From contig JAFTON010000055.1 of assembly GCA_017463765.1 (NCBI GenBank), positions 1 through 56,262 of the forward strand: DNA of 56,262 bases. Reading direction: 5' to 3'. Source of the DNA: Clostridia bacterium. Its GTDB lineage: Bacteria; Bacillota; Clostridia; Oscillospirales; CAG-272. The stretch's first letter is position 1, and every line of letters begins with the position of its first letter. Shown piece by piece: positions 2,780 through 42,845 of this stretch. Below the pieces are notes generated by a model. The model was given only the letters and a program-made list of their open reading frames with translations. It had not been told where the DNA came from and ran no database searches. Position numbers and translations under genes: made by a program.

Positions 2780-4105
2780 TTAAACCTCCGTTTGTTCAGC
2801 CTGTTGCTGTTTTGGCTGCATCTTATTCAGTCTGCTTTCGTTCAGGGCAAATATCACTGCTCGTATCACAAGTGCCACAAAGAACAGCACAAGTGGCAGC
2901 AGGCTTATCAGGCTGCGATTTACAAAGAACATTGCCGTCACGGTAATAACGGCTGAAATCACGCCCGAGAACCATACGAAAGATCCGACGATTTTAATCA
3001 TTGCACCAAGAGATGATATACTCTCAACGCCACAAAGCCTTAATATAGAATAAGGTAGAAGAGCTGCAACCATAATCATCAGTGCAATAAAGGGTGCAAG
3101 CGATACGGTATTCAGAAGGTAGGCATATGCACTTAAAAACCAATTTGACTTGAAAGCGCTTTTGATAAAGCCGTCTGCCTTATCGTTTGCCACCTGCTGC
3201 GTATCCTTGTCAGAGATAAGCTCACCGTTTTCAAGGCTGCTGTAGAAGCCGTAGAAGGAAACCTCTCTACCTCCCTTTGTTTCAAAGGAGCCACTCATAT
3301 AATCATCAAAAATCAATATATACTTGGTAAGACCCTGACTTATATAATTATGGTAGTAATAATTACGGAGCAGTGGAATTTTCGAGCTGCTCTCATAGGC
3401 GTCTATAGCAGGATAATAGCTTTCAAAATAAGCCTCGTAAATCGCTCTGTTATATTCAGCCTCGCTGATTTTTCCTTCGGCGAGCTCGCTTGCCAGCGTC
3501 TTTGTTAATTCCTTCTTCTCTTCACCCAGTCCGTCAAGATACTCTATGTATCCCTTAACCTTTTCACCGTCAAGCACAAGCTCCTTTGACGTATACTTTA
3601 GCTTAAAATCAAAATTAAGTCTTGCGACCTCGCTCAGCGTAAGATAATCCTGATATGAAATCTCGGTATTCTTGCCGTCGTTTGAAAGGCAGTAGGCGTA
3701 AACCTCGCAGGGAGTATCTGCAGCACGCAGATCAACAACCACGTTATAGCCGTTTACCGAGTAAGCCTGTCTGTCCTCATCATTCTCAAGTGTGTTTATC
3801 AGAAGGCTGCCTGCGTAGTCTGCACCCTGCCCCTTAAGCTTCAGGTCACCGTTATCTATTACCATGTCAATTCGCTTATCGCTATCGGCATTTGCAAACA
3901 CACCACGGACAGTTTCCACGAAATCAGGTGAATTGTCGAAGTGGACTGCAAATGGCAGCATATCACCTGCAAAAAAGCTTATCCATAAAAACGACAGCGC
4001 CAGCATAAAGCCTAAAAATACGTTTGTGTATCCACGCTTCGCGCCTTCCTTTGCAGCTTTATGTGAGAAAAAGCTGAGGAAGAAAAATCTGAACCATTTT
4101 TTCAT
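2780..4105 (-). CDS. Hypothetical membrane protein: N-terminal TM, ~300-aa extracytoplasmic domain, C-terminal multi-TM bundle
   Basis: 441-aa ORF packed 3 nt after the ATPase gene and 1 nt before the kinase gene. Hydrophobic segments are FLGFMLALSFLWISFFAG and the C-terminal 100 aa. No motif recognised. Its position resembles that of YvdJ-type membrane proteins in sugar operons, which is a weak analogy only. Confidence 0.7.
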   Translation of the reverse strand: MKKWFRFFFLSFFSHKAAKEGAKRGYTNVFLGFMLALSFLWISFFAGDMLPFAVHFDNSPDFVETVRGVFANADSDKRIDMVIDNGDLKLKGQGADYAGSLLINTLENDEDRQAYSVNGYNVVVDLRAADTPCEVYAYCLSNDGKNTEISYQDYLTLSEVARLNFDFKLKYTSKELVLDGEKVKGYIEYLDGLGEEKKELTKTLASELAEGKISEAEYNRAIYEAYFESYYPAIDAYESSSKIPLLRNYYYHNYISQGLTKYILIFDDYMSGSFETKGGREVSFYGFYSSLENGELISDKDTQQVANDKADGFIKSAFKSNWFLSAYAYLLNTVSLAPFIALMIMVAALLPYSILRLCGVESISSLGAMIKIVGSFVWFSGVISAVITVTAMFFVNRSLISLLPLVLFFVALVIRAVIFALNESRLNKMQPKQQQAEQTEV

Positions 4106-4108
4106 AAT

Positions 4109-5569
4109 TTACTTATTGCCGTATTCTCTCGACATAATAGACAGCTCGCTCTCCCTGTCGAAGAGATGTACGAACTTTTCCGTAAAGCTGACACCCACTG
4201 CATCACCGGGGATAAGATCGTTCCTTTCGGGAACGCTTACAATAAAGTCGTTATCCTCTCCATTGAAGCGAAGGAACAGCTGAGTGGTATTACCAAGAAC
4301 CTCTTTAATGGTAAGCGTTGCCTTGATTCCCGACTCATCAAGTCTGATATTTTCACCTCTCACGCCAAGATAAACGCTGTGAGGCTTTCCGTCAAGATAC
4401 TCATCCTGTATGCTACGAAGCTCCGAGAGCTTAAGGCTTACGTTCTGACCGTCCTTAAAGGTAACGTTAAGCTTATCACCCTCTCGCTTTATCTCAGACT
4501 CGAAGAAGTTCATCTGAGGTGTGCCGATAAATCCTGCTACAAACTTGTTATCGGGATAATCGAACAGATTGGTAGGTGTGTCTATCTGCTGAATAACGCC
4601 GAGCTTCATAACCACTATTCTGGTACCCATCGTCATTGCTTCTATCTGGTCGTGGGTAACGTAAATAAAGGTGGTCTTAAGCTGATTATGTAATTTAACT
4701 ATCTCAGCTCTCATCGCCGTTCTCAGCTTAGCATCAAGATTGGAGAGAGGCTCGTCAAGCAGAAATACCTTAGGTCCACGAACCATTGCACGTCCAAGCG
4801 CGATACGCTGACGCTGTCCACCCGACATCTCTGCAGGCTTGGAGTCAAGAAGCTCCTCTATTCCGAGAACGCCTGCTGCCCACTGTACCTTCTCATCAAT
4901 CTCTTCCTTGCTCATATGAACGTAATTAAACTGAGGCACGGGTGTGGTCTGGTAGTATTTCAATGACTTCTCTGCTTCCTCAATACGCTTCTCAAGCAGT
5001 GCCTTCTTTTCCGAATAGTAACGGATATCGGCTTCAGCCTGCTCTCTGTCAAGCTTGTCGGAGCTCTTAAGCGCTTCAATATCCTTTGCTAAAGCTTCGT
5101 TTTCCTTTTGCAGCTTCTTAAGTTTCTTAGCTGTCTCGCTAATCTTCTTATTATCAATTTTAGCAACCTGATTGCCGTCCTTATCAAGCTTGGCAACAGG
5201 AATCTTACGCATCTTCAGACCGAATGCGATGTTGTCATATGCAGTAAGATGTGGATAAAGTGCATAGCTCTGGAACACCATCGCTATATCTCTGTCTTTA
5301 GCATCGACGTCGTTAACCAACTGATCATCTATATAAAGCTCACCACCACTTATGTCCTCAAGACCGGCAATCATTCTCAGCGTGGTTGATTTACCACATC
5401 CCGAAGGACCGACGAATACGATAAACTCACCGTCGTTGATCTCCATGTTAAAATCCTTAACTGCAACGAAATCGCCACTTCTCTTTTTTGCCTCGGCCTT
5501 AGCATTCTTTTTAACCTTACCAACGCCTGCATAAACCTTGTATACATGCCTTAATAATAATTTCGCCAT
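4109..5569 (-). CDS. MalK/MsmX/UgpC-type sugar ABC transporter ATP-binding protein with a ~97-aa coiled-coil insertion
   Basis: Walker A GPSGCGKST, Q-loop MVFQSYALYP, signature MSGGQRQR, Walker B FLLDEP, and a C-terminal MalK-like regulatory domain. The preferred start is MAKLLL (ATG 5569-5567), preceded by AAGGGGAAG. The track ORF starts 13 codons earlier, at 5608. Confidence 0.9.
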   Translation of the reverse strand: MAKLLLRHVYKVYAGVGKVKKNAKAEAKKRSGDFVAVKDFNMEINDGEFIVFVGPSGCGKSTTLRMIAGLEDISGGELYIDDQLVNDVDAKDRDIAMVFQSYALYPHLTAYDNIAFGLKMRKIPVAKLDKDGNQVAKIDNKKISETAKKLKKLQKENEALAKDIEALKSSDKLDREQAEADIRYYSEKKALLEKRIEEAEKSLKYYQTTPVPQFNYVHMSKEEIDEKVQWAAGVLGIEELLDSKPAEMSGGQRQRIALGRAMVRGPKVFLLDEPLSNLDAKLRTAMRAEIVKLHNQLKTTFIYVTHDQIEAMTMGTRIVVMKLGVIQQIDTPTNLFDYPDNKFVAGFIGTPQMNFFESEIKREGDKLNVTFKDGQNVSLKLSELRSIQDEYLDGKPHSVYLGVRGENIRLDESGIKATLTIKEVLGNTTQLFLRFNGEDNDFIVSVPERNDLIPGDAVGVSFTEKFVHLFDRESELSIMSREYGNK

Positions 5570-9300: not shown

Positions 9301-12300
9301 AGTGTAACGTCTGCTGTGGGAGTATAGCTGTCGCCAACTGCAGTCATGGTCTCATCGCCCTGTACGTACCAGCCACGGAATACGAAGCCTTCTGCAGAAA
9401 GGGTGGGAAGAGCAACTGCAATATTGATGTTAACAGAGCCGATCTGCTCAAATTCAACGTTCTTGCCGTTAGCATCGAGTGTAACGTTTGCCATAGGCTT
9501 GGTAAGCGTTGCAGTTCTTGCTGCGGTGTCAAGAGTCATTACGTAGTATTCGGTGTTTACACCGTCAACTGCGAAGTATACGTCGAAGCCGTTCTCGGTT
9601 GCAGTGTAGGTACCTGTCTTATCGCCATATATAATTGTGCCTGTACCGTCGAGAGCGATAGTTTCATCACCCATAGCGTAGCTGCCGTAGTAAGCATCAA
9701 GCGCCATTGTGTTGTTGTTATCGCTAAAGGAAGAACCGATAGAGGTTACGGCAACGATTATGTTACCGGTCTTGTTATCCTTAACGATAACAGTCTTGGA
9801 ATCCTTAACAGTAGAGGGAGTAAGAACCTCACCTATTGCAGAAGTGATAGTTACGTTGTTGTAGATATGGTTGTTGTAGAGGAAGATGGTAGTATCCTCG
9901 CCAAGCTTTGTATCTACAGTGATGAACTGTGCATAGTAGTTAAATTCGGTGCTACCGGGAGTCTTGGGAGCCTTTACACCGTAGTGTGCGTCTACCTTAC
10001 CGTTTGTAGCCTCTGTATAACGGCTGTAGAAGTAGTAGTCATTACCGATATCGTAATTACTATACATACCTGCGATAACGCCGGTCTCAGCATCGAAGTA
10101 GAAGGTATAGGTTGAAGTAGCAGTTGCGCTTGTCTTCCACTGAACAACCTGAGTTGCAGGATCGTAGGATACGATTATACCGGTCTTGAAGCCGGAAATA
10201 TTACCGTTTTCATCAATGGTAATAGGAGTCTTTGAGCTATTACCATAGCTTGCATTCCAGATCTCAACACCATAGTATGTGCCGTAGTAAGCGGGAAGAT
10301 CGATCCACTGAGCGATAATGGTTGCGCCTGTGTCCTCTGCACCGATGGTGGTTTCAAGGTCAAGTGCAAAGTCCTCGCCGTCAATCTCGCCGTTGCCGTT
10401 AGCATCAACGTACCAAGCTACAAACTTCTTGTAGTTGTCGAGGTCAAGGCCGTAGGTAGGAAGGAAGTCGCCGATAACGTCGCCCTCGCCAAGATAGAGA
10501 GTATCAGCGTCATCACCGATAGTTCCTACAAGAGTGATAACAACCTTTGCCTTCCAGCTTGCGTAAAGGGTTACGTCGGTGGTAGGAATGAAGTCAGCTT
10601 CTACGGGCTGAGTGCAATCTGCATCATAGTACCAGCCCTTGAAGGTCATGGTAGGATGAGTGTAGGTAGGAAGAGTCTGAGGTACGTTCTTGTTGTACTC
10701 GATAGGCTCCTGCTCAGCATATTCGCCTGTTACAAAGCTTACGTTAACCTTAGGCATTTCAAGGGTGTAGGAAGCGTCATCGCCAAGAGCTACAACGTAG
10801 AAGTGAGTAACCTTGCCGTCTGCATCCTTAAGATATACGTTAATGCCGTCATCTGCAACGGTGTAGCTACCGCTAACGCCGCCAAGAGTAAGTGTGCCGA
10901 AGCCCGAGATAACGAGATCGCCGTTGTCGCTATTGGAGTAGGTTCCTTCATAACCGTCAAGAGCGTTCTGCTTCTCGCCATCATAACCGTAGGAAGCGAT
11001 AAGCTCGCCTGCAGAATTCTTAACGTAAACGTATGCTGCATTATAGCAAGCATCTGCGCTTACTGCGTTACCTGCCATATCAGAGAAGCTTACGCCGATG
11101 TATGCTCTGTCTGCTGTGCAGAATACGCTGTATGCGTTATCGTTTACGGTATAGGTAAATGCCATTGCGTTGCCGTTCCAGGAGGAAGCAACTGCAGAGT
11201 TATAAGAGGGATCTGCCTCAAAGGGAGTATAAAGAACAACGTAATCGAAAGCAGAGTTTCTCGCACGAACGATTATGCCTGTAGCAAAATCAACGTATGC
11301 GGGATATGTAATGTAGCTTTCATAGTTGGGTACTTCATTACCGTCTTCATCGGTAGCAATGTCGTAGATGACAATATCAATTCTACCTGTTTCAGCATCA
11401 ACCATTCTGATCTGGGTAAAGCCACGGTAAGGATAGGATGTGCAGAATCCGAAGCCGTTAGCATCAAGAGTCAAGGTAGCATTGCTCCAGGTATCCTGAG
11501 CAGTAACAACCTTATTGCTTTCCTCAAGCTCGCCGTCGAATACAAGGTTGGTGTAGGTCTTTCCGTCATAAGGAGCAACGAGCTTTGCGATCGCCACATC
11601 TACTGTGCCGTAGATAGAGGAATAGGTCATCACGCCTGCCTCGTTGTAGGTTGCGGGAGTAGCTACGGTAGCTGTCCATACGGTAGCATCGGTAAGAACG
11701 GGGATTATTCCCTGCTCCTTTGCGCCACAAGCACACTCGCGCTCAGCTGTGCCGGCTGCGGTCTCGGTAGCCTGTGTAATAACTGTCCATGCACCGTAAG
11801 CGTGACCCTCGGTCTTAGCAAGAGTAACCTTTACTGTGCCGTAAAGCTCGGAGGTGTAAACCTTCTCGCCCTCTTCAAGATGAGAGGGAGCCTTGGTGAT
11901 CTCGGCAGTCCATACGGTAGCATCGGTAAGAACGGGAATTACGCCCTGTTCCTTATCGCCACAGATACATTCACGCTCAGCTGTGCCTGCTGCGGTCTCG
12001 GTAGCCTGTGTAATAACTGTCCATGCGCCGTAGGAGTGTCCCTCGGTCTTGGGAAGAGTAACCTTTACTGTTCCGTAAAGCTCGGAGGTGTAGGTCTTCT
12101 CACCCTCTGTGGTGTGAGTAGGCTCGGTGGTAACCTCTGCCGACCATACGGTAGTATCTGCAAGAGCAGGTACGCTTACGTTTTCGGTTGCACCGCACTC
12201 ACAAGTCTTTCTTGCCTGGCCCTCAGATGCCTCGGTAGGATTTACGGTCAAGGTGTAAGTCCATTCGTGAGGAATTATAGCCAGCTCGAATTCTACAGAT

Positions 12301-38891: not shown

Positions 38892-39500
38892 TTATACTTT
38901 CCAAATCAAAGGCTCGCCTCTTACACAAACTCCTACTTTGTACTTTCTTTTTGGAAACGCTTTGGAATGAAAATTAATCACTAAAGCATATTCTGGTCCA
39001 TCGTTGATAAGTATTTCTCTTAAATAACTAATACTTTTGGGGTTATCAGTAGCAATTTTGCCTTGTTGCTCTAAATCACAAATGTACTTATGAATTTCCC
39101 AAAAAGGAGATTCCCATCCTCCTAATGTTTTTGCTGTTTTTTTGTTTTTTTGGTAGTTATTAATCATCGAATCAAGCTTATCAAAAAGCTGTTTTTCGTC
39201 GTTGAAATCCGTAAAAGGTGCGAAGTCTATTTTCTTACATAACTTATCGCATGACTTATCACTTACGGAAAAAATATGAAAATGTCCCAAACCATATTCG
39301 TATGCAGTGAAAAAAGCAATATTTGTTTTTGAAACAACATAAAACAGCTGTGAATAAAAAGGATTTATAACATTTTTCTTTCCGTAAATCAAAACAGGTT
39401 TTTGAAATTCATTCCAGTCAAGTTGCATTATTTTTATATTGTTAATTTCAATGTCAGAGCCTAATGGATAAAATCCCAAATAACTTACTTTAACAAACAT
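38892..39500 (-). CDS. Hypothetical protein (202 aa), AT-rich orphan
   Basis: ORF with an AAGGGGGG ribosome-binding site 6 nt upstream. It has its own promoter and terminator. No motif recognised. Its composition is clearly more AT-rich than the flanking operon. Confidence 0.6.
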   Translation of the reverse strand: MFVKVSYLGFYPLGSDIEINNIKIMQLDWNEFQKPVLIYGKKNVINPFYSQLFYVVSKTNIAFFTAYEYGLGHFHIFSVSDKSCDKLCKKIDFAPFTDFNDEKQLFDKLDSMINNYQKNKKTAKTLGGWESPFWEIHKYICDLEQQGKIATDNPKSISYLREILINDGPEYALVINFHSKAFPKRKYKVGVCVRGEPLIWKV

Positions 39501-39585: not shown

Positions 39586-39658
39586 TAACGAATACATCCA
39601 TAAATCTAACGAATACACCATGATTTTAACGAATACGCCCCATAGTTTTAACGAAAAC
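39586..39658. repeat. Four direct repeats TAACGAA(T/A)AC phased at 20-22 bp
   Basis: Copies at 39586-39595, 39607-39616, 39627-39636 and 39649-39658 (the last is TAACGAAAAC). Most are preceded by TTT. They lie 28-100 bp upstream of the -35 of the 202-aa gene. Confidence 0.8.
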
Positions 39659-39760
39659 AAAAGAGACCATCCACCAAAGGCTCAAACACCTCTGAAAGAT
39701 AGGCTCTTTTTATCACAAACTATAAAGTTTATGCCAAAAAGGCAAAAATACCCCTAAAAA

Positions 39761-39790
39761 GCAAAAAAACGTAGAATTGTCACAATTTCT
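39761..39790 (-). terminator. Terminator-like hairpin plus U-tract downstream of element A
   Basis: AGAATTG (39773-39779) / CAATTTCT (39783-39790, one bulge). On the minus strand it is followed by ACGTTTTTTTGC. Confidence 0.5.
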
Positions 39791-39814
39791 TGTATCCTAT
39801 TCTGCGTTTCTTTT

Positions 39815-39936
39815 TGGTGACCCGGAATATTACAAGGTCGAATACGGGAATTTCGCCTAAAGCGAATATTTGCTCGCTCTACGCCTGACAAGCGAGCTTG
39901 CCGATCTCCGAGCGGCAAATGCGAACCCATATTCGT
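39815..39936 (-). ncRNA. Structured RNA-like element A, derived from the tRNA-Glu 3' half
   Basis: In RNA sense: AUGGGUUCG, a 70-nt three-helix insert, AUUCCCGUA, an 18-nt insert, then CGGGUCACCA. The flanking pieces match the T-arm and acceptor 3' end of the adjacent tRNA-Glu. The helices covary with copy B. No 5' tRNA half is present. Confidence 0.4.
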
Positions 39937-40030
39937 GCAGGTGATGAGTTGCAAGATAAGCAAATCAATGCTATGGAATGCTTAATTTGCAAAGCGCGAG
40001 TGGGTTTGATGAGCGTACGGGTCAACCAAC

Positions 40031-40066
40031 GACAGAAAAAAGAAAAAGCAGGACTTCTGTCCTGCT
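40031..40066 (-). terminator. Rho-independent terminator downstream of element B
   Basis: AGCAGGAC (40047-40054) / GTCCTGCT (40059-40066). On the minus strand it is followed by TTTTTCTTTTTT. The outer arms CGACAG / CTGTCG extend the stem. Confidence 0.7.
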
Positions 40067-40075
40067 TTCTGTCGT

Positions 40076-40196
40076 TGGTGAGCCATGCTATTACAATATC
40101 GAACTACGGGAATTTCAGCAAAGCTGAATATTTGCGCACTCTCCGCCTGAAGAGCAAGCTCTTCGATCTCCGAGTGGCAAATGCGAACCCATATCC
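40076..40196 (-). ncRNA. Structured RNA-like element B, derived from the tRNA-Glu 3' half (paralogue of A)
   Basis: Roughly 80 percent identical to A by eye, with the same architecture, and ends in GGCUCACCA. It is preceded by a perfect 10-bp hairpin, CCTGAAAATC / GATTTTCAGG (40195-40217). Confidence 0.4.
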
Positions 40197-40244
40197 TGAA
40201 AATCACAGATTTTCAGGGTGGGTCGATCCCGACGGAGTCGCAAC

Positions 40245-40285
40245 AAAAAGAGACAGGCACCCACTAGGAGTGCCTGTCTCTTTTT
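40245..40285 (-). terminator. Rho-independent terminator of tRNA-Glu
   Basis: 16-bp stem AAAAAGAGACAGGCAC (40245-40260) / GTGCCTGTCTCTTTTT (40270-40285). The U-tract is part of the 3' arm. Confidence 0.8.
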
Positions 40286-40287
40286 GT

Positions 40288-40362
40288 TGGTGACCCGTAC
40301 GGGAATCGAACCCATGTTTTCAGCGTGAGAGGCTAACGTCTTAACCGCTTGACCAACGGGCC
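40288..40362 (-). tRNA. tRNA-Glu (anticodon CUC), CCA encoded
   Basis: The reverse complement GGCCCGTTGGTCAAGCGGTTAAGACGTTAGCCTCTCACGCTGAAAACATGGGTTCGATTCCCGTACGGGTCACCA is 75 nt. It folds as a cloverleaf with anticodon loop CUCUCAC. The acceptor, D and T arms closely match Bacillus-type tRNA-Glu. Confidence 0.95.
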
Positions 40363-40382: not shown

Positions 40383-40411
40383 ATTATACTATTTTTTTAT
40401 CGATTTGTCAA
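40383..40411 (-). promoter_or_regulatory. Consensus sigma-A promoter of tRNA-Glu
   Basis: On the minus strand: TTGACA (40411-40406), a 17-nt spacer, then TATAAT (40388-40383). About 14-20 nt upstream of the mature 5' end. Confidence 0.8.
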
Positions 40412-40541: not shown

Positions 40542-40584
40542 TACTATGTATAATTATAAGTAAATGCTTTCGAAGGAGATAAAA

Positions 40585-41424
40585 ATGGACTATACGAGAC
40601 TGAACCCGGTGATACGCTCGGTATCACTTTACGAAAAAATAAATCGCACCGACGAGTGCATTGGATATGATTCCCGAGTTATTTATATTGTATCGGGCGA
40701 GCTGACGGCTGTGGTCGATGGCGAGAAGCTGGGACATCTGTCGCCCGGAAACCTTCTTTATATTCCCGCGGGAGTGAGCTATAAGCTGAAGAGCAAGTAT
40801 CTGAGGGCTGTGGTCATTACCTTCGACCCTTATGACACAAGACCGGAGCCCGTGGACAGACTTGCTCCCGTAAGGGTAGACGAGTACAACCGGGAGCTAT
40901 GCCATCTTGAAGGAGTAGAGGGTCCTCTCGGCAAGCATATTTTATTGCCCGATATGGAGTCCGACCGTGATTTGTTTATAAGGATGAGCAATATTTTCAC
41001 CTCGGCAGAGGGGCATTACAGGGCTCAGATTTCTGCGATGTTCAAGCTTGTTCTGCTTAAAATAATAGAAGCCTCTGACGAAAACGCCCTGCCTGCGAGA
41101 ATGGTTGAGGAGCTTGACAACTATATAAGGGAGAATGTATCTGACGAGATCTCAAATACCGAGATCGGCGCGATCTTCGGCTATCACCCCTTTTATGTCA
41201 GCCGTATGTTAAAGGAAAGAAAGGGTATGACCCTCCGTCAGTATATAATTTCCTACAGGCTTAAGAATGCAAAAAGGCTGCTTGAGCTTTCTAACAAAAG
41301 CGCAGCCGAGATCGCAGTGGAATGCGGTTTTACCGATGCATCCTATTTCGCCAAAACATTTAAAGCAGCTTTCGGTATGACTCCAAAGGAGTATAGAAAC
41401 ACATTTAAGGAAGATTTTATTTGA
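40585..41424 (+). CDS. AraC-family transcriptional regulator (cupin sensor domain plus HTH_18)
   Basis: The preferred start is MDYTRLNP (ATG 40585 after GAAGGAG). The C-terminus, ...SAAEIAVECGFTDASYFAKTFKAAFGMTPKEYR, is a classic AraC HTH. Confidence 0.88.
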   Translation: MDYTRLNPVIRSVSLYEKINRTDECIGYDSRVIYIVSGELTAVVDGEKLGHLSPGNLLYIPAGVSYKLKSKYLRAVVITFDPYDTRPEPVDRLAPVRVDEYNRELCHLEGVEGPLGKHILLPDMESDRDLFIRMSNIFTSAEGHYRAQISAMFKLVLLKIIEASDENALPARMVEELDNYIRENVSDEISNTEIGAIFGYHPFYVSRMLKERKGMTLRQYIISYRLKNAKRLLELSNKSAAEIAVECGFTDASYFAKTFKAAFGMTPKEYRNTFKEDFI

Positions 41425-41462
41425 TTTTGACAACTTTTGTTGTCATTTAAAAGGGTTTTGAT

Positions 41463-42845
41463 ATGAAATTAAAGAAAAACGACAGCTTTGTGTCGGAGAT
41501 AATTGATATAACTAATCTTGGCTTCGGGGTGGCAAAAGTTGACGGTGCAGTGGTCTTTGTATCGGGTACCGTGCCCCAGGACGTTGCAAGGATAAAGATA
41601 ATAAAGGTTGGTTCATCCTACTCTGTCGGACGGGTGGAGGAGCTTATCACACCATCGCCACTTCGCTTTGAGGGACGGTGTGCCAACGGTGGCTGCCGTA
41701 GTTGCGCATACAAATGCCTTTCCTATGAGTTCGAAAAGGGGCTTAAGGAGGAGGCAGTGCGACAGATTTTCAAGAAAAGTGGGCTTGATGAAATAAAAAT
41801 CATGCCTCTTGTGGGCTCGCCAATCGAGGAGGGCTATCGAAACAAAGCGCAATACCCTGTCAGCCGTGACAAAAGTGGCGAGTATATTATCGGCTTCTAT
41901 GCACCGAAGAGCCACCGTGTTACCGAGGCTGCAAGCTGCCCTCTCGCACCCGAGATTTTCAGCAGAATTCTCTGCGAGCTGCGCGCATTTTTCAGAAAGC
42001 ATCAGTTGTCGGTATACAACGAGGAGAGTGGCGAGGGACTTATTCGCCATATTTATCTCAGACGTGGAGAGGTCTCGGGCGAGGTGTTGCTAACCCTTGT
42101 GATTAATGGCACTTCCCTGCCTCATTCGGAGGAGCTTAATGAGCTTTTGCAGGAGAAATTCCCCGAGATTGTGGGAGTTTTACTCAACGTGAACCGTGAA
42201 AACACCAATATCATTCTTGGCGAGGAGTTTATCACCCTCAGTGGCAGAGATTACATTTTTGACACGCTTGGTGGGGTGACGCTTAAGATTACTGCGCCTT
42301 CCTTCTACCAGGTGAATCACGCTGCAGCAGAGCTCTTGTATGCGAAGGCAAAGGAGCTTGCTGCCCCTACCAAAAAGGATTTGCTGCTCGATCTGTACTG
42401 TGGCGCAGGCTCAATCGGTCTGTCAATGGCTGACGAGGCAGGAGAGGTTATCGGCATTGAGATTGTGGAGAGCGCAGTGGAGTGCGCCACCTTTAACGCC
42501 GAGATCAATCATATATTCAATGCGTCCTTCTACGCCGGCGATGCATCTGACACCAAGAAGATTCTCGAGCCTGCCGAAAAGGCAAGAGGCGAGAAGATAA
42601 ACCCGAATATCGTTATCCTCGACCCACCGAGAGGTGGCACAACCGAGGAGCTTATCGAACACATTTCAAGCCTTAATCCGCAAAGAATAGTTTACATTTC
42701 CTGCAATCCGTCAACGCTTGCAAGAGATATGGTAGCATTTAAAAAATATGGATATACAGGAAACGAAGTGACTCCTTTTGATTTGTTCCCGATGACAGGA
42801 CACGTCGAAAGTGTGGTTTGTCTCACGAGAAAGGAGTTGCTATGA
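41463..42845 (+). CDS. rlmD: 23S rRNA (uracil-C5)-methyltransferase, RlmD/RumA family
   Basis: TRAM-like N-terminus, Fe-S cysteines (CANGGCRSCAYKC ... SCPL), SAM-binding LDLYCGAGSIG, motif DPPRGG and catalytic ISCNPSTLARD. Confidence 0.88.
   Translation: MKLKKNDSFVSEIIDITNLGFGVAKVDGAVVFVSGTVPQDVARIKIIKVGSSYSVGRVEELITPSPLRFEGRCANGGCRSCAYKCLSYEFEKGLKEEAVRQIFKKSGLDEIKIMPLVGSPIEEGYRNKAQYPVSRDKSGEYIIGFYAPKSHRVTEAASCPLAPEIFSRILCELRAFFRKHQLSVYNEESGEGLIRHIYLRRGEVSGEVLLTLVINGTSLPHSEELNELLQEKFPEIVGVLLNVNRENTNIILGEEFITLSGRDYIFDTLGGVTLKITAPSFYQVNHAAAELLYAKAKELAAPTKKDLLLDLYCGAGSIGLSMADEAGEVIGIEIVESAVECATFNAEINHIFNASFYAGDASDTKKILEPAEKARGEKINPNIVILDPPRGGTTEELIEHISSLNPQRIVYISCNPSTLARDMVAFKKYGYTGNEVTPFDLFPMTGHVESVVCLTRKELL

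Follow-up and report, generated by a model that had tools for sequence, protein, structure and literature searches.

What are the two related elements that stand, one behind the other, downstream of a single tRNA gene in the genome of a Clostridia bacterium? The window, i.e., the whole stretch of DNA that was analysed, comprises 56,262 nucleotides, and a reading of its sequence alone had offered two answers: the elements could represent a tRNA-like noncoding RNA (ncRNA) family, or they could be attachment-site (att) scars of integrative elements. Both alternatives prove to be partly supported, each for a different part of the element. The reading favored here, to which we assign a probability of roughly 0.55, is that of a new ncRNA motif residing on cassettes that resemble cis-mobilizable elements (CIMEs), being miniature in size, flanked by att sites and accreted at the 3' ends of tRNAs.

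The tRNA-Glu(CUC) gene, located at 40288..40362 on the (-) strand by ARAGORN and Rfam, is intact and is the only tRNA of the window; the Rfam tRNA model matches 40291-40362 alone, even at E<=10. Its T-arm reads ATGGG-TTCGATT-CCCGT and its 3' end ACGGGTCACCA, and it is preceded on the same strand by a perfect sigma-70 promoter (TTGACA-17-TATAAT; 40383..40411), the sole consensus promoter that the promoter scan placed upstream of the array. Downstream on the same strand lie element B (40076-40196) and element A (39815-39936), each composed of ATGGGTTCG, an insert of about 70 nt, ATTCCCGTA, a further 18-20 nt, and (C/T)GG(G/C)TCACCA. Patterns made from the parts of A and B matched the window at these two places and shuffled sequence nowhere, in agreement with the layout first described.

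Two features of the neighborhood deserve mention in their own right. Divergently from the tRNA gene and just upstream of its promoter, 40564-42845 (+) holds genes for an AraC-family regulator and an RlmD/TrmA-like (uracil-5) RNA methyltransferase; AraC genes recur beside related arrays on account of synteny. Serine-recombinase elements are known to target a methyltransferase gene, rumA, in streptococci (PMC5704250). Beyond element A, at 39590-39670 (-), GTATTCGTTA(A/G)A forms a series of three to four direct repeats, spaced at about 22 nt, just upstream of a promoter-like site and a 202-aa ORF (38892-39500, (-)) that has no Pfam match; these repeats look like iterons or an operator array.

The conserved unit of the elements, termed the type-1 motif, is a three-way junction of about 90 nt with a T-stem as its closing helix; it interrupts the T-loop between nucleotides 57 and 58. 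Its two copies occupy 40103..40192 in B and 39841..39930 in A, both on the (-) strand, and score 104.8 and 108.9 bits, respectively, with a covariance model (CM) of the family. From 5' to 3', the motif consists of the 5' strand of the T-stem (P0), UUCG, helix P1 enclosing a 7x7 internal loop and P2, helix P3, A(U/A)U, and the 3' strand of P0. The internal loop of P1 is purine-rich, symmetric and invariant (GGAGAUC/AGGCGNA; GGAGAUC/AGGCGGA in copy B). Across the family, GGAGAUC, AGCU.G.U at the apex of P2, and AGGCG.AG are nearly invariant, which extends the conservation of GGAGAUC and AGGCG originally noticed between A and B. K-turn and loop-E readings of the internal loop were discarded by eye, as a symmetric 7x7 loop fits neither consensus.

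The compensatory differences between A and B in three helices were found as claimed, and they recur on a larger scale among relatives. In a MAFFT alignment of 31 relatives, 96.4% of the cells were paired and 16 pairs showed changes on both sides; none of 500 shuffles reached the observed value, and slid controls stayed at or below 52%. Homologues with intact helices were likewise recovered with the CM, whose alignment leans towards its own model (the MAFFT alignment being the independent check): among 67 distinct relatives, 95% of the cells were paired and 25 of the 28 pairs changed on both sides, with covariation in all four helices, the T-stem included. Outside the T-stem, G.U pairs outnumbered A.C mismatches by 30 to 10, which points to a single-stranded function on the tRNA strand, and the T-loop residues UUCG...AUU are kept across the family. 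Relative to shuffled sequence, A folds much better (z = -3.5) and B does not (z = -0.5). Judging from these substitution patterns, the insert of about 70 nt, together with the T-stem, appears clearly to be under selection for secondary structure on the tRNA strand.

The relatives were gathered in two scans. A loose pattern applied to 185,579 species genomes yielded about 30 true relatives, all from MAGs assigned to Clostridia, Eubacteriales, Oscillospiraceae or Acutalibacteraceae of the gut or rumen, the other matches being chance ones in high-GC genomes. A core pattern devoid of the T-arm, applied to metagenomes, yielded at least 28 additional true relatives; among the matches listed, every true one was embedded in a T-arm, with P1 immediately preceded by GGTTCG or GGTCCG and P3 followed by a matching stem. 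Because a pattern free of the T-arm still finds T-arm-embedded copies, the insert must lie between T-loop positions 57 and 58, so that the insertion after UUCG proposed for A and B is a property of the whole family. A CM built from 31 copies gave 70 matches in 55 loci and, within the window, matched A and B only. The family comprises at least 67 distinct members in gut and rumen Clostridia MAGs and metagenomes.

No known RNA family had been recognized in A or B at the outset, and database searches agree. Infernal searches of the region against Rfam 15 gave no credible match over A or B, at either the gathering score or E<=10, and 11 related loci gave tRNAs only at the gathering score, with none for the sister inserts described below. 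Searches of IMG/VR with two patterns returned chance matches only, in high-GC coding DNA; unit A had no blastn match among INPHARED phages or PLSDB plasmids, and literature searches found no description of the type-1 motif. Among 111 ORFs within 2.5 kb of the motif, Pfam revealed no recurrent family beyond two large serine recombinases (LSRs) and the syntenic AraC genes, and the genes directly downstream of motif copies are mutually unrelated. An assignment to PATE or REPIN elements of the IS200/IS605 type was also rejected, given that no transposase family is enriched among these ORFs and that P1 encloses P2, unlike two terminal hairpins. Strong covariation, the excess of G.U over A.C, at least 67 distinct members and absence from Rfam 15 thus support a new structured RNA family.

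As to whether homologues always sit beside tRNA-Glu, they do not: units occur on the same strand as a tRNA-Glu, Cys, Ser, Ala or Gln gene, at a distance of 90-400 nt downstream of it. In each case, the closing stem copies the T-stem of the neighboring tRNA, and P0 covaries in step with that tRNA: its 5' and 3' strands read ATGGG/CCCGT behind tRNA-Glu, CCGG/CCGG behind tRNA-Cys, AGGG/CCCT behind tRNA-Ser, and TGGG/CCCA behind tRNA-Ala. The acceptor/CCA end and the 18-nt stretch, which had been counted as parts of the element, are not conserved across the family. Instead, the 3' flank is of three kinds, namely the cognate acceptor strand with CCA, a GTTCGA...GGCTCACCA tail, or a terminator that follows directly. 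On the 5' side, there is indeed no D or anticodon arm, in line with the claim that the 5' tRNA half is lacking, but the tRNA 3' half recurs ahead of each unit as an inverted and degenerate copy. This copy is near-perfect in L117 and degenerate in most units; as a conserved pairing partner, it rises only marginally above shuffled controls across units and is therefore treated as a decaying remnant. In L160 (~11960-12020, (+)) and L035, tandem uninterrupted tRNA-Ala 3' fragments (GGTCATGGGTTCGAATCCCACCATCTC, then TGGGTTCGAATCTCACCATCTCTC) stand directly upstream of a type-1 unit, and by their sequence they appear to be classic att scars beside a structured unit.

These flanks bear on the proposal that each unit of ~120-220 nt is a host tRNA-like small RNA, a tRNA mimic with an acceptor-like helix, T-arm and CCA. 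Its maturation would fall to RNase P, RNase Z or the CCA-adding enzyme, and its effector domain would be the insert. In its favor, distant strands of unit A can pair into an acceptor-like helix that terminates in ACCA. The cognate acceptor 3' strand and CCA are copied exactly in the Ser, Cys and Ala units, L117 possesses a near-perfect complementary 5' strand as well, and the retained T-loop residues would also suit a mimic. However, many members lack the acceptor strand and CCA or have something else in their place (in L064, L037 and L054, a terminator directly follows the T-stem), the complementary upstream strand has degenerated in the majority of units, the presence of cassettes varies from strain to strain, and neither ARAGORN nor the Rfam tRNA, tmRNA and Y-RNA models match units A and B. 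A mimic of this kind is accordingly judged quite unlikely. From the original suggestion of a tRNA-like ncRNA family, the structured RNA family with covariation stands, and the tRNA-like features, not being conserved, fall away; the 'tRNA-like 3' end' would be attachment-site material lying outside the RNA.

The units are embedded in gene-less cassettes, of 212 bp for B and about 261 bp for A, in which a terminator, an inverted tRNA 3'-half remnant, a leader hairpin, the type-1 motif and a recombinase-arm-like tail follow one another. The cassettes are arranged head to tail behind tRNA-Glu, and the tRNA 3' end (TCACCAA) recurs in direct orientation at their boundaries: TCACCAAC is found at the tRNA end (40293-40286) and after the B tail (40081-40074), and TCACCAA after the A tail. 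On the (-) strand, cassette B opens with the terminator hairpin 3' of the tRNA (40243..40286), which the boundary of an indel marks as supplied by the cassette. It continues with a degenerate inverted copy of the tRNA-Glu 3' half (X'(B), TTGTTGCGACTCCGTCGGGATCGACCCA; 40218..40244) and a leader hairpin (CCTGAAAATCTGTGATTTTCAGG; 40195..40217) that in relatives bears other insert types. After the motif, the B tail (AGTTCGATATTGTAATAGCATGGCTCACCA; 40076..40105) resembles the last ~30 nt of LSR genes, i.e., an attP arm, and ends in the direct repeat.

Cassette A, on the same strand, starts with the terminator after B (40029..40075), followed by its own inverted copy of the tRNA 3' half (X'(A), TGGTTGACCCGTACGCTCATCAAACCCA; 40001..40029), the 5' part of which (40029-40018) pairs with CGGGUCACCAA at the 3' end of A, and by a hairpin-containing leader (39931..40000). 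The A tail (39815..39843) combines an attP-arm-like stretch (ATTCGACCTTGTAATATTC) with a displaced tRNA-Glu 3' end (CGGGTCACCA). The hairpin and U-tract that RNAfold places after A (39760..39814) are probably the original terminator of the tRNA. The claim that the tRNA, B and A each have a terminator of their own is borne out, for B by the terminator scan and for the tRNA and A by hairpins with U-tracts in RNAfold that a simple scan did not call.

Such cassettes vary in presence among strains. In a contig from the DNA metagenome run X3, the tRNA ACCA is joined directly to the B terminator; the joint (40073->40286) skips 212 bp, with the 8 letters TCACCAAC common to both sides. As the joint falls at the tRNA-3'-end repeats, cassette B constitutes a presence/absence polymorphism bounded by direct repeats. 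In other contigs, from metatranscriptome and DNA runs, the 70-nt leader of A is swapped for the 14-nt palindrome GCGACGTACGTCGC, and one 218-bp unit is deleted in the metatranscriptome contig X21. A 1-kb intermediate in L039 comprises a type-1 unit, a promoter, a 180-aa ORF that is not homologous to the 202-aa ORF of the window, a tail, a terminator and the next unit. By these criteria of sequence, tRNA-Glu is the apparent source of the T-stem copied in A and B as well as the putative attachment site (attB).

No recombinase or integrase ORF occurs in 39750-40290, but relatives carry such genes at the equivalent repeats, as the att-scar alternative had predicted: LSR genes encoding Resolvase, Recombinase and Zn_ribbon_recom domains end at the TCACCA-terminator junction in L002, L004 and L204. 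In L002 and L004, the array starts right after the LSR gene, whose reading frame crosses ...GCTTCACCA into the terminator; in L204, an LSR homologue of 89% identity has the same ending, ...AGTTCGGAGACCAGAGCGTTTGCTTCACCA plus terminator. L038 retains a 117-aa C-terminal LSR remnant where L026 and L018 hold an intact tRNA-Glu. The L004 LSR gene aligns at its 3' end with the tails of both A and B, and the acceptor 3' strand, CCA and 18-nt insert behave, to all appearances, as attachment-site material. A full-size LSR element with type 1 at its left end was not seen, and L204 and L205, LSR homologue contigs of 15-22 kb, contain neither a tRNA nor a type-1 match. Moreover, the recombinase-like tail is absent from many units, namely those that follow tRNA-Ser, Cys and Ala, and these call for other recombinases or mechanisms.

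Two further observations concern the recombinases. Homologues of the L004 LSR (P0001-P0120) range from about 490 to 660 aa in length, and this variation may reside at the C-terminus; if so, it would fit a reading frame that crosses the attachment junction into the DNA beyond. In L038 (~3500-3600, (-)), a perfect TTGACA-17-TACAAT promoter beside the recombinase remnant drives a sequence of ~62 nt with TTGGTAGAGC, ending in ATGGCTCACCA and a terminator. If this sequence is a truncated Firmicute tRNA-Lys, as its resemblance to one suggests, the TGGCTCACCA end of B would be tRNA-Lys-like and not tRNA-Glu-like.

Taken at face value, these junctions could mean that the elements are inert att scars, decaying leftovers of integrative elements in which the helices are DNA-level palindromes, e.g., binding sites for a recombinase or accessory protein or single-stranded DNA hairpins, and not RNA. 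The recombinase genes at the same junctions, the polymorphic cassettes with tRNA 3'-end direct repeats on either side, the recombinase-arm-like tails, and a metatranscriptome depth profile like that of DNA all accord with such scars. Yet the covariation of 25 of 28 pairs and the preference for G.U over A.C on one strand speak against purely DNA-level palindromes, the loops are nearly invariant across at least five tRNA contexts and differing kinds of 3' flank, the core is kept while the flanking inverted copies decay, and a three-way junction would not be expected to persist without selection. Inert scars thus appear to be a very improbable account of the whole element. The att-scar alternative fits the tail, the 3' end and the repeats, but it does not explain away the RNA fold.

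A different possibility arises from the other structured inserts at the same T-loop point, of which there are at least three: type 2, type 1-long and type 1b. Type 2, seen in L012 (~4100-4160, (-)), L004 (~480-540, (-)), L039 (~4960-5020, (+)) and L020, folds into P1, a hairpin, CUUGYAR and P1', has no Rfam match, and covaries, both helices being wholly different between the L012/L004 and L039/L020 versions. Type 1-long, of ~165 nt and near-identical in two MAGs (L012 3853-4016, (-); L050 7209-7370, (-)), shares the P1 base and P3 with type 1 but has GAAGAUU/AGGUAGCG and an extra domain of ~95 nt. Type 1b is present in L092, L184 and L039. A third kind of unit, in L018 (~250-400, (+)), L038 (~3130-3300, (-)) and L026, has a structured leader of ~100 nt, with CCCCG...CGGGG around a hairpin and GCGTGCGCA...TGCGCACGC, followed by an uninterrupted T-arm and acceptor end (CAGGGTTTCAGATTCCCGTACGGGTCACCA).

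Accordingly, the insert of about 70 nt could itself be mobile, e.g., as a mini transposon, reverse-splicing RNA or ribozyme-like module that invades dispensable tRNA 3' fragments at the 57/58 point of the T-loop, with the other insert types being similar elements. Copied T-arms of Glu, Cys, Ser, Ala and Gln tRNAs all have the insert at one and the same point, and the variety of structured inserts found there would be expected of such elements. Inserts are about 96% identical in different tRNA contexts (L160 or L055 behind tRNA-Ala versus L117 behind tRNA-Ser), and identical leaders bear different inserts, the leader of A in the window carrying type 2 in L039 and L004. Yet the Ala and Ser copies in L160 and L117 also have in common the leader upstream of the T-stem, the T-stem itself differing by one compensated pair, which indicates that a larger module moves and not the insert alone. 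Furthermore, no filled and empty pair differing by the insert alone was found, no transposase or reverse transcriptase is linked to the motif among the 111 neighboring ORFs, no intact tRNA bears an insert, and no Rfam ribozyme matches either element at E<=10. Scanning by brute force for arbitrary inserts in T-loop-like surroundings proved too noisy to be of use. Autonomous movement of the insert is consequently held to be unlikely.

Nevertheless, the recombination of leaders with inserts, the occurrence of inserts across tRNA contexts and the existence of several insert types leave room for a T-loop-specific insertion or exchange mechanism, and accretion of cassettes by itself gives no account of the fixed 57/58 insertion point or of several unrelated inserts there. 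Tentatively, and as a speculation that we do not expect to hold, the 57/58 gap in T-loops of displaced tRNA 3' fragments might serve as a docking site for exchangeable structured RNA modules (types 1, 1-long, 1b and 2). These would form an unrecognized class of mobile noncoding cassettes encoding RNA effectors or ribozymes that act for or against integrative elements and are made only behind a strong tRNA promoter.

The preferred reading of CIME-like cassettes carrying an ncRNA motif builds on the structure, the family, its linkage to tRNAs, the cassette polymorphism, and the recombinase genes at the same junction in relatives. Under this reading, the cassettes would be miniature deletion derivatives of integrative elements that use an LSR at the tRNA 3' end and would have accreted by site-specific recombination. 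The type-1 module would represent the tRNA-proximal left end of the integrative element and the cassette tail the last ~30 nt of the recombinase gene. The promoter scan found no sigma-70 consensus promoter for A or B, and each unit lies behind a terminator; the motif would presumably be transcribed by read-through from the tRNA promoter. Assembled metatranscriptome contigs cover the core at a core:tRNA depth of about 0.05-0.1; since DNA metagenomes show the same relative depth profile, these contigs were not counted as evidence for expression. The motif presumably works as RNA, the invariant internal loop and the P2 loop would bind a partner, and possible roles include regulation or maintenance of the element or a function for the host.

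Should the motif function as an RNA, uncultured Clostridia of the gut and rumen would harbor a new, well-supported structured-RNA family and probably several sister families. It would offer a natural 'tRNA scaffold' in which a foreign domain emerges from a gap in the T-loop. Att-site accretion could then leave noncoding cassettes of less than 300 bp whose only conserved content is an RNA fold, and tools that delimit islands by tRNA 3' fragments would misread such arrays. The cassettes also provide a concrete test case for whether LSRs mobilize miniature non-autonomous elements.

Several known systems invite comparison. The orphan motifs ROOL, GOLLD, Drum and HEARO and the RAGATH candidates were found by covariation, are often multi-copy, and occur beside tRNAs or integrases. 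Type 1 resembles them in covariation, copy number and neighborhood, with no Rfam match to any of them, and we know of no description of an orphan motif that resides within a T-loop or duplicates the T-stem of its neighboring tRNA. Among bacterial tRNA-like ncRNAs, the tRNA-like domain of tmRNA and Y RNA/YrlA (PMC4201824) similarly build a further RNA domain onto a T-arm (GGUUCG...CC) and, in some cases, an acceptor-like helix. In contrast to type 1, their T-loop is intact and the extra domain leaves elsewhere; moreover, they are single conserved host genes with known partners (SmpB and Ro60), and their Rfam models do not match type 1.

With respect to recombination, serine-recombinase IMEs have been described mostly within protein genes (PMC5704250). 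Another precedent is found in the Dehalococcoides islands that target ssrA (tmRNA) by means of a serine recombinase and leave tandem repeats of the ssrA 3' end (PMC3146451). Like the arrays described here, they combine a serine recombinase at the 3' end of a tRNA-like gene with tandem direct repeats of that end, but the repeats are plain 3'-end copies between large islands and lack a T-loop insert. The tandem accretion of CIMEs and of ICE/IME remnants at tRNA gene 3' ends is also established (Pavlovic 2004; Guedon 2017, PMC5704250). Unlike CIMEs, the present cassettes measure just ~210-260 bp and contain no gene, and their conserved content is a structured RNA motif in a copied T-arm; in addition, an LSR is the recombinase implicated here, at a tRNA 3' end. 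As with CIMEs, the cassettes lack an integrase, have the tRNA 3' end directly repeated on either side, lie in tandem behind a target tRNA that stays intact, and vary in presence between strains with breakpoints in the repeats, and related recombinase-bearing elements occupy the same site (L002, L004 and L204, with a remnant in L038). Together, the repeats, the polymorphism, the L039 intermediate and the LSR genes at the junction suggest the pattern of CIME decay and tandem accretion (PMC5704250), here at a miniature scale.
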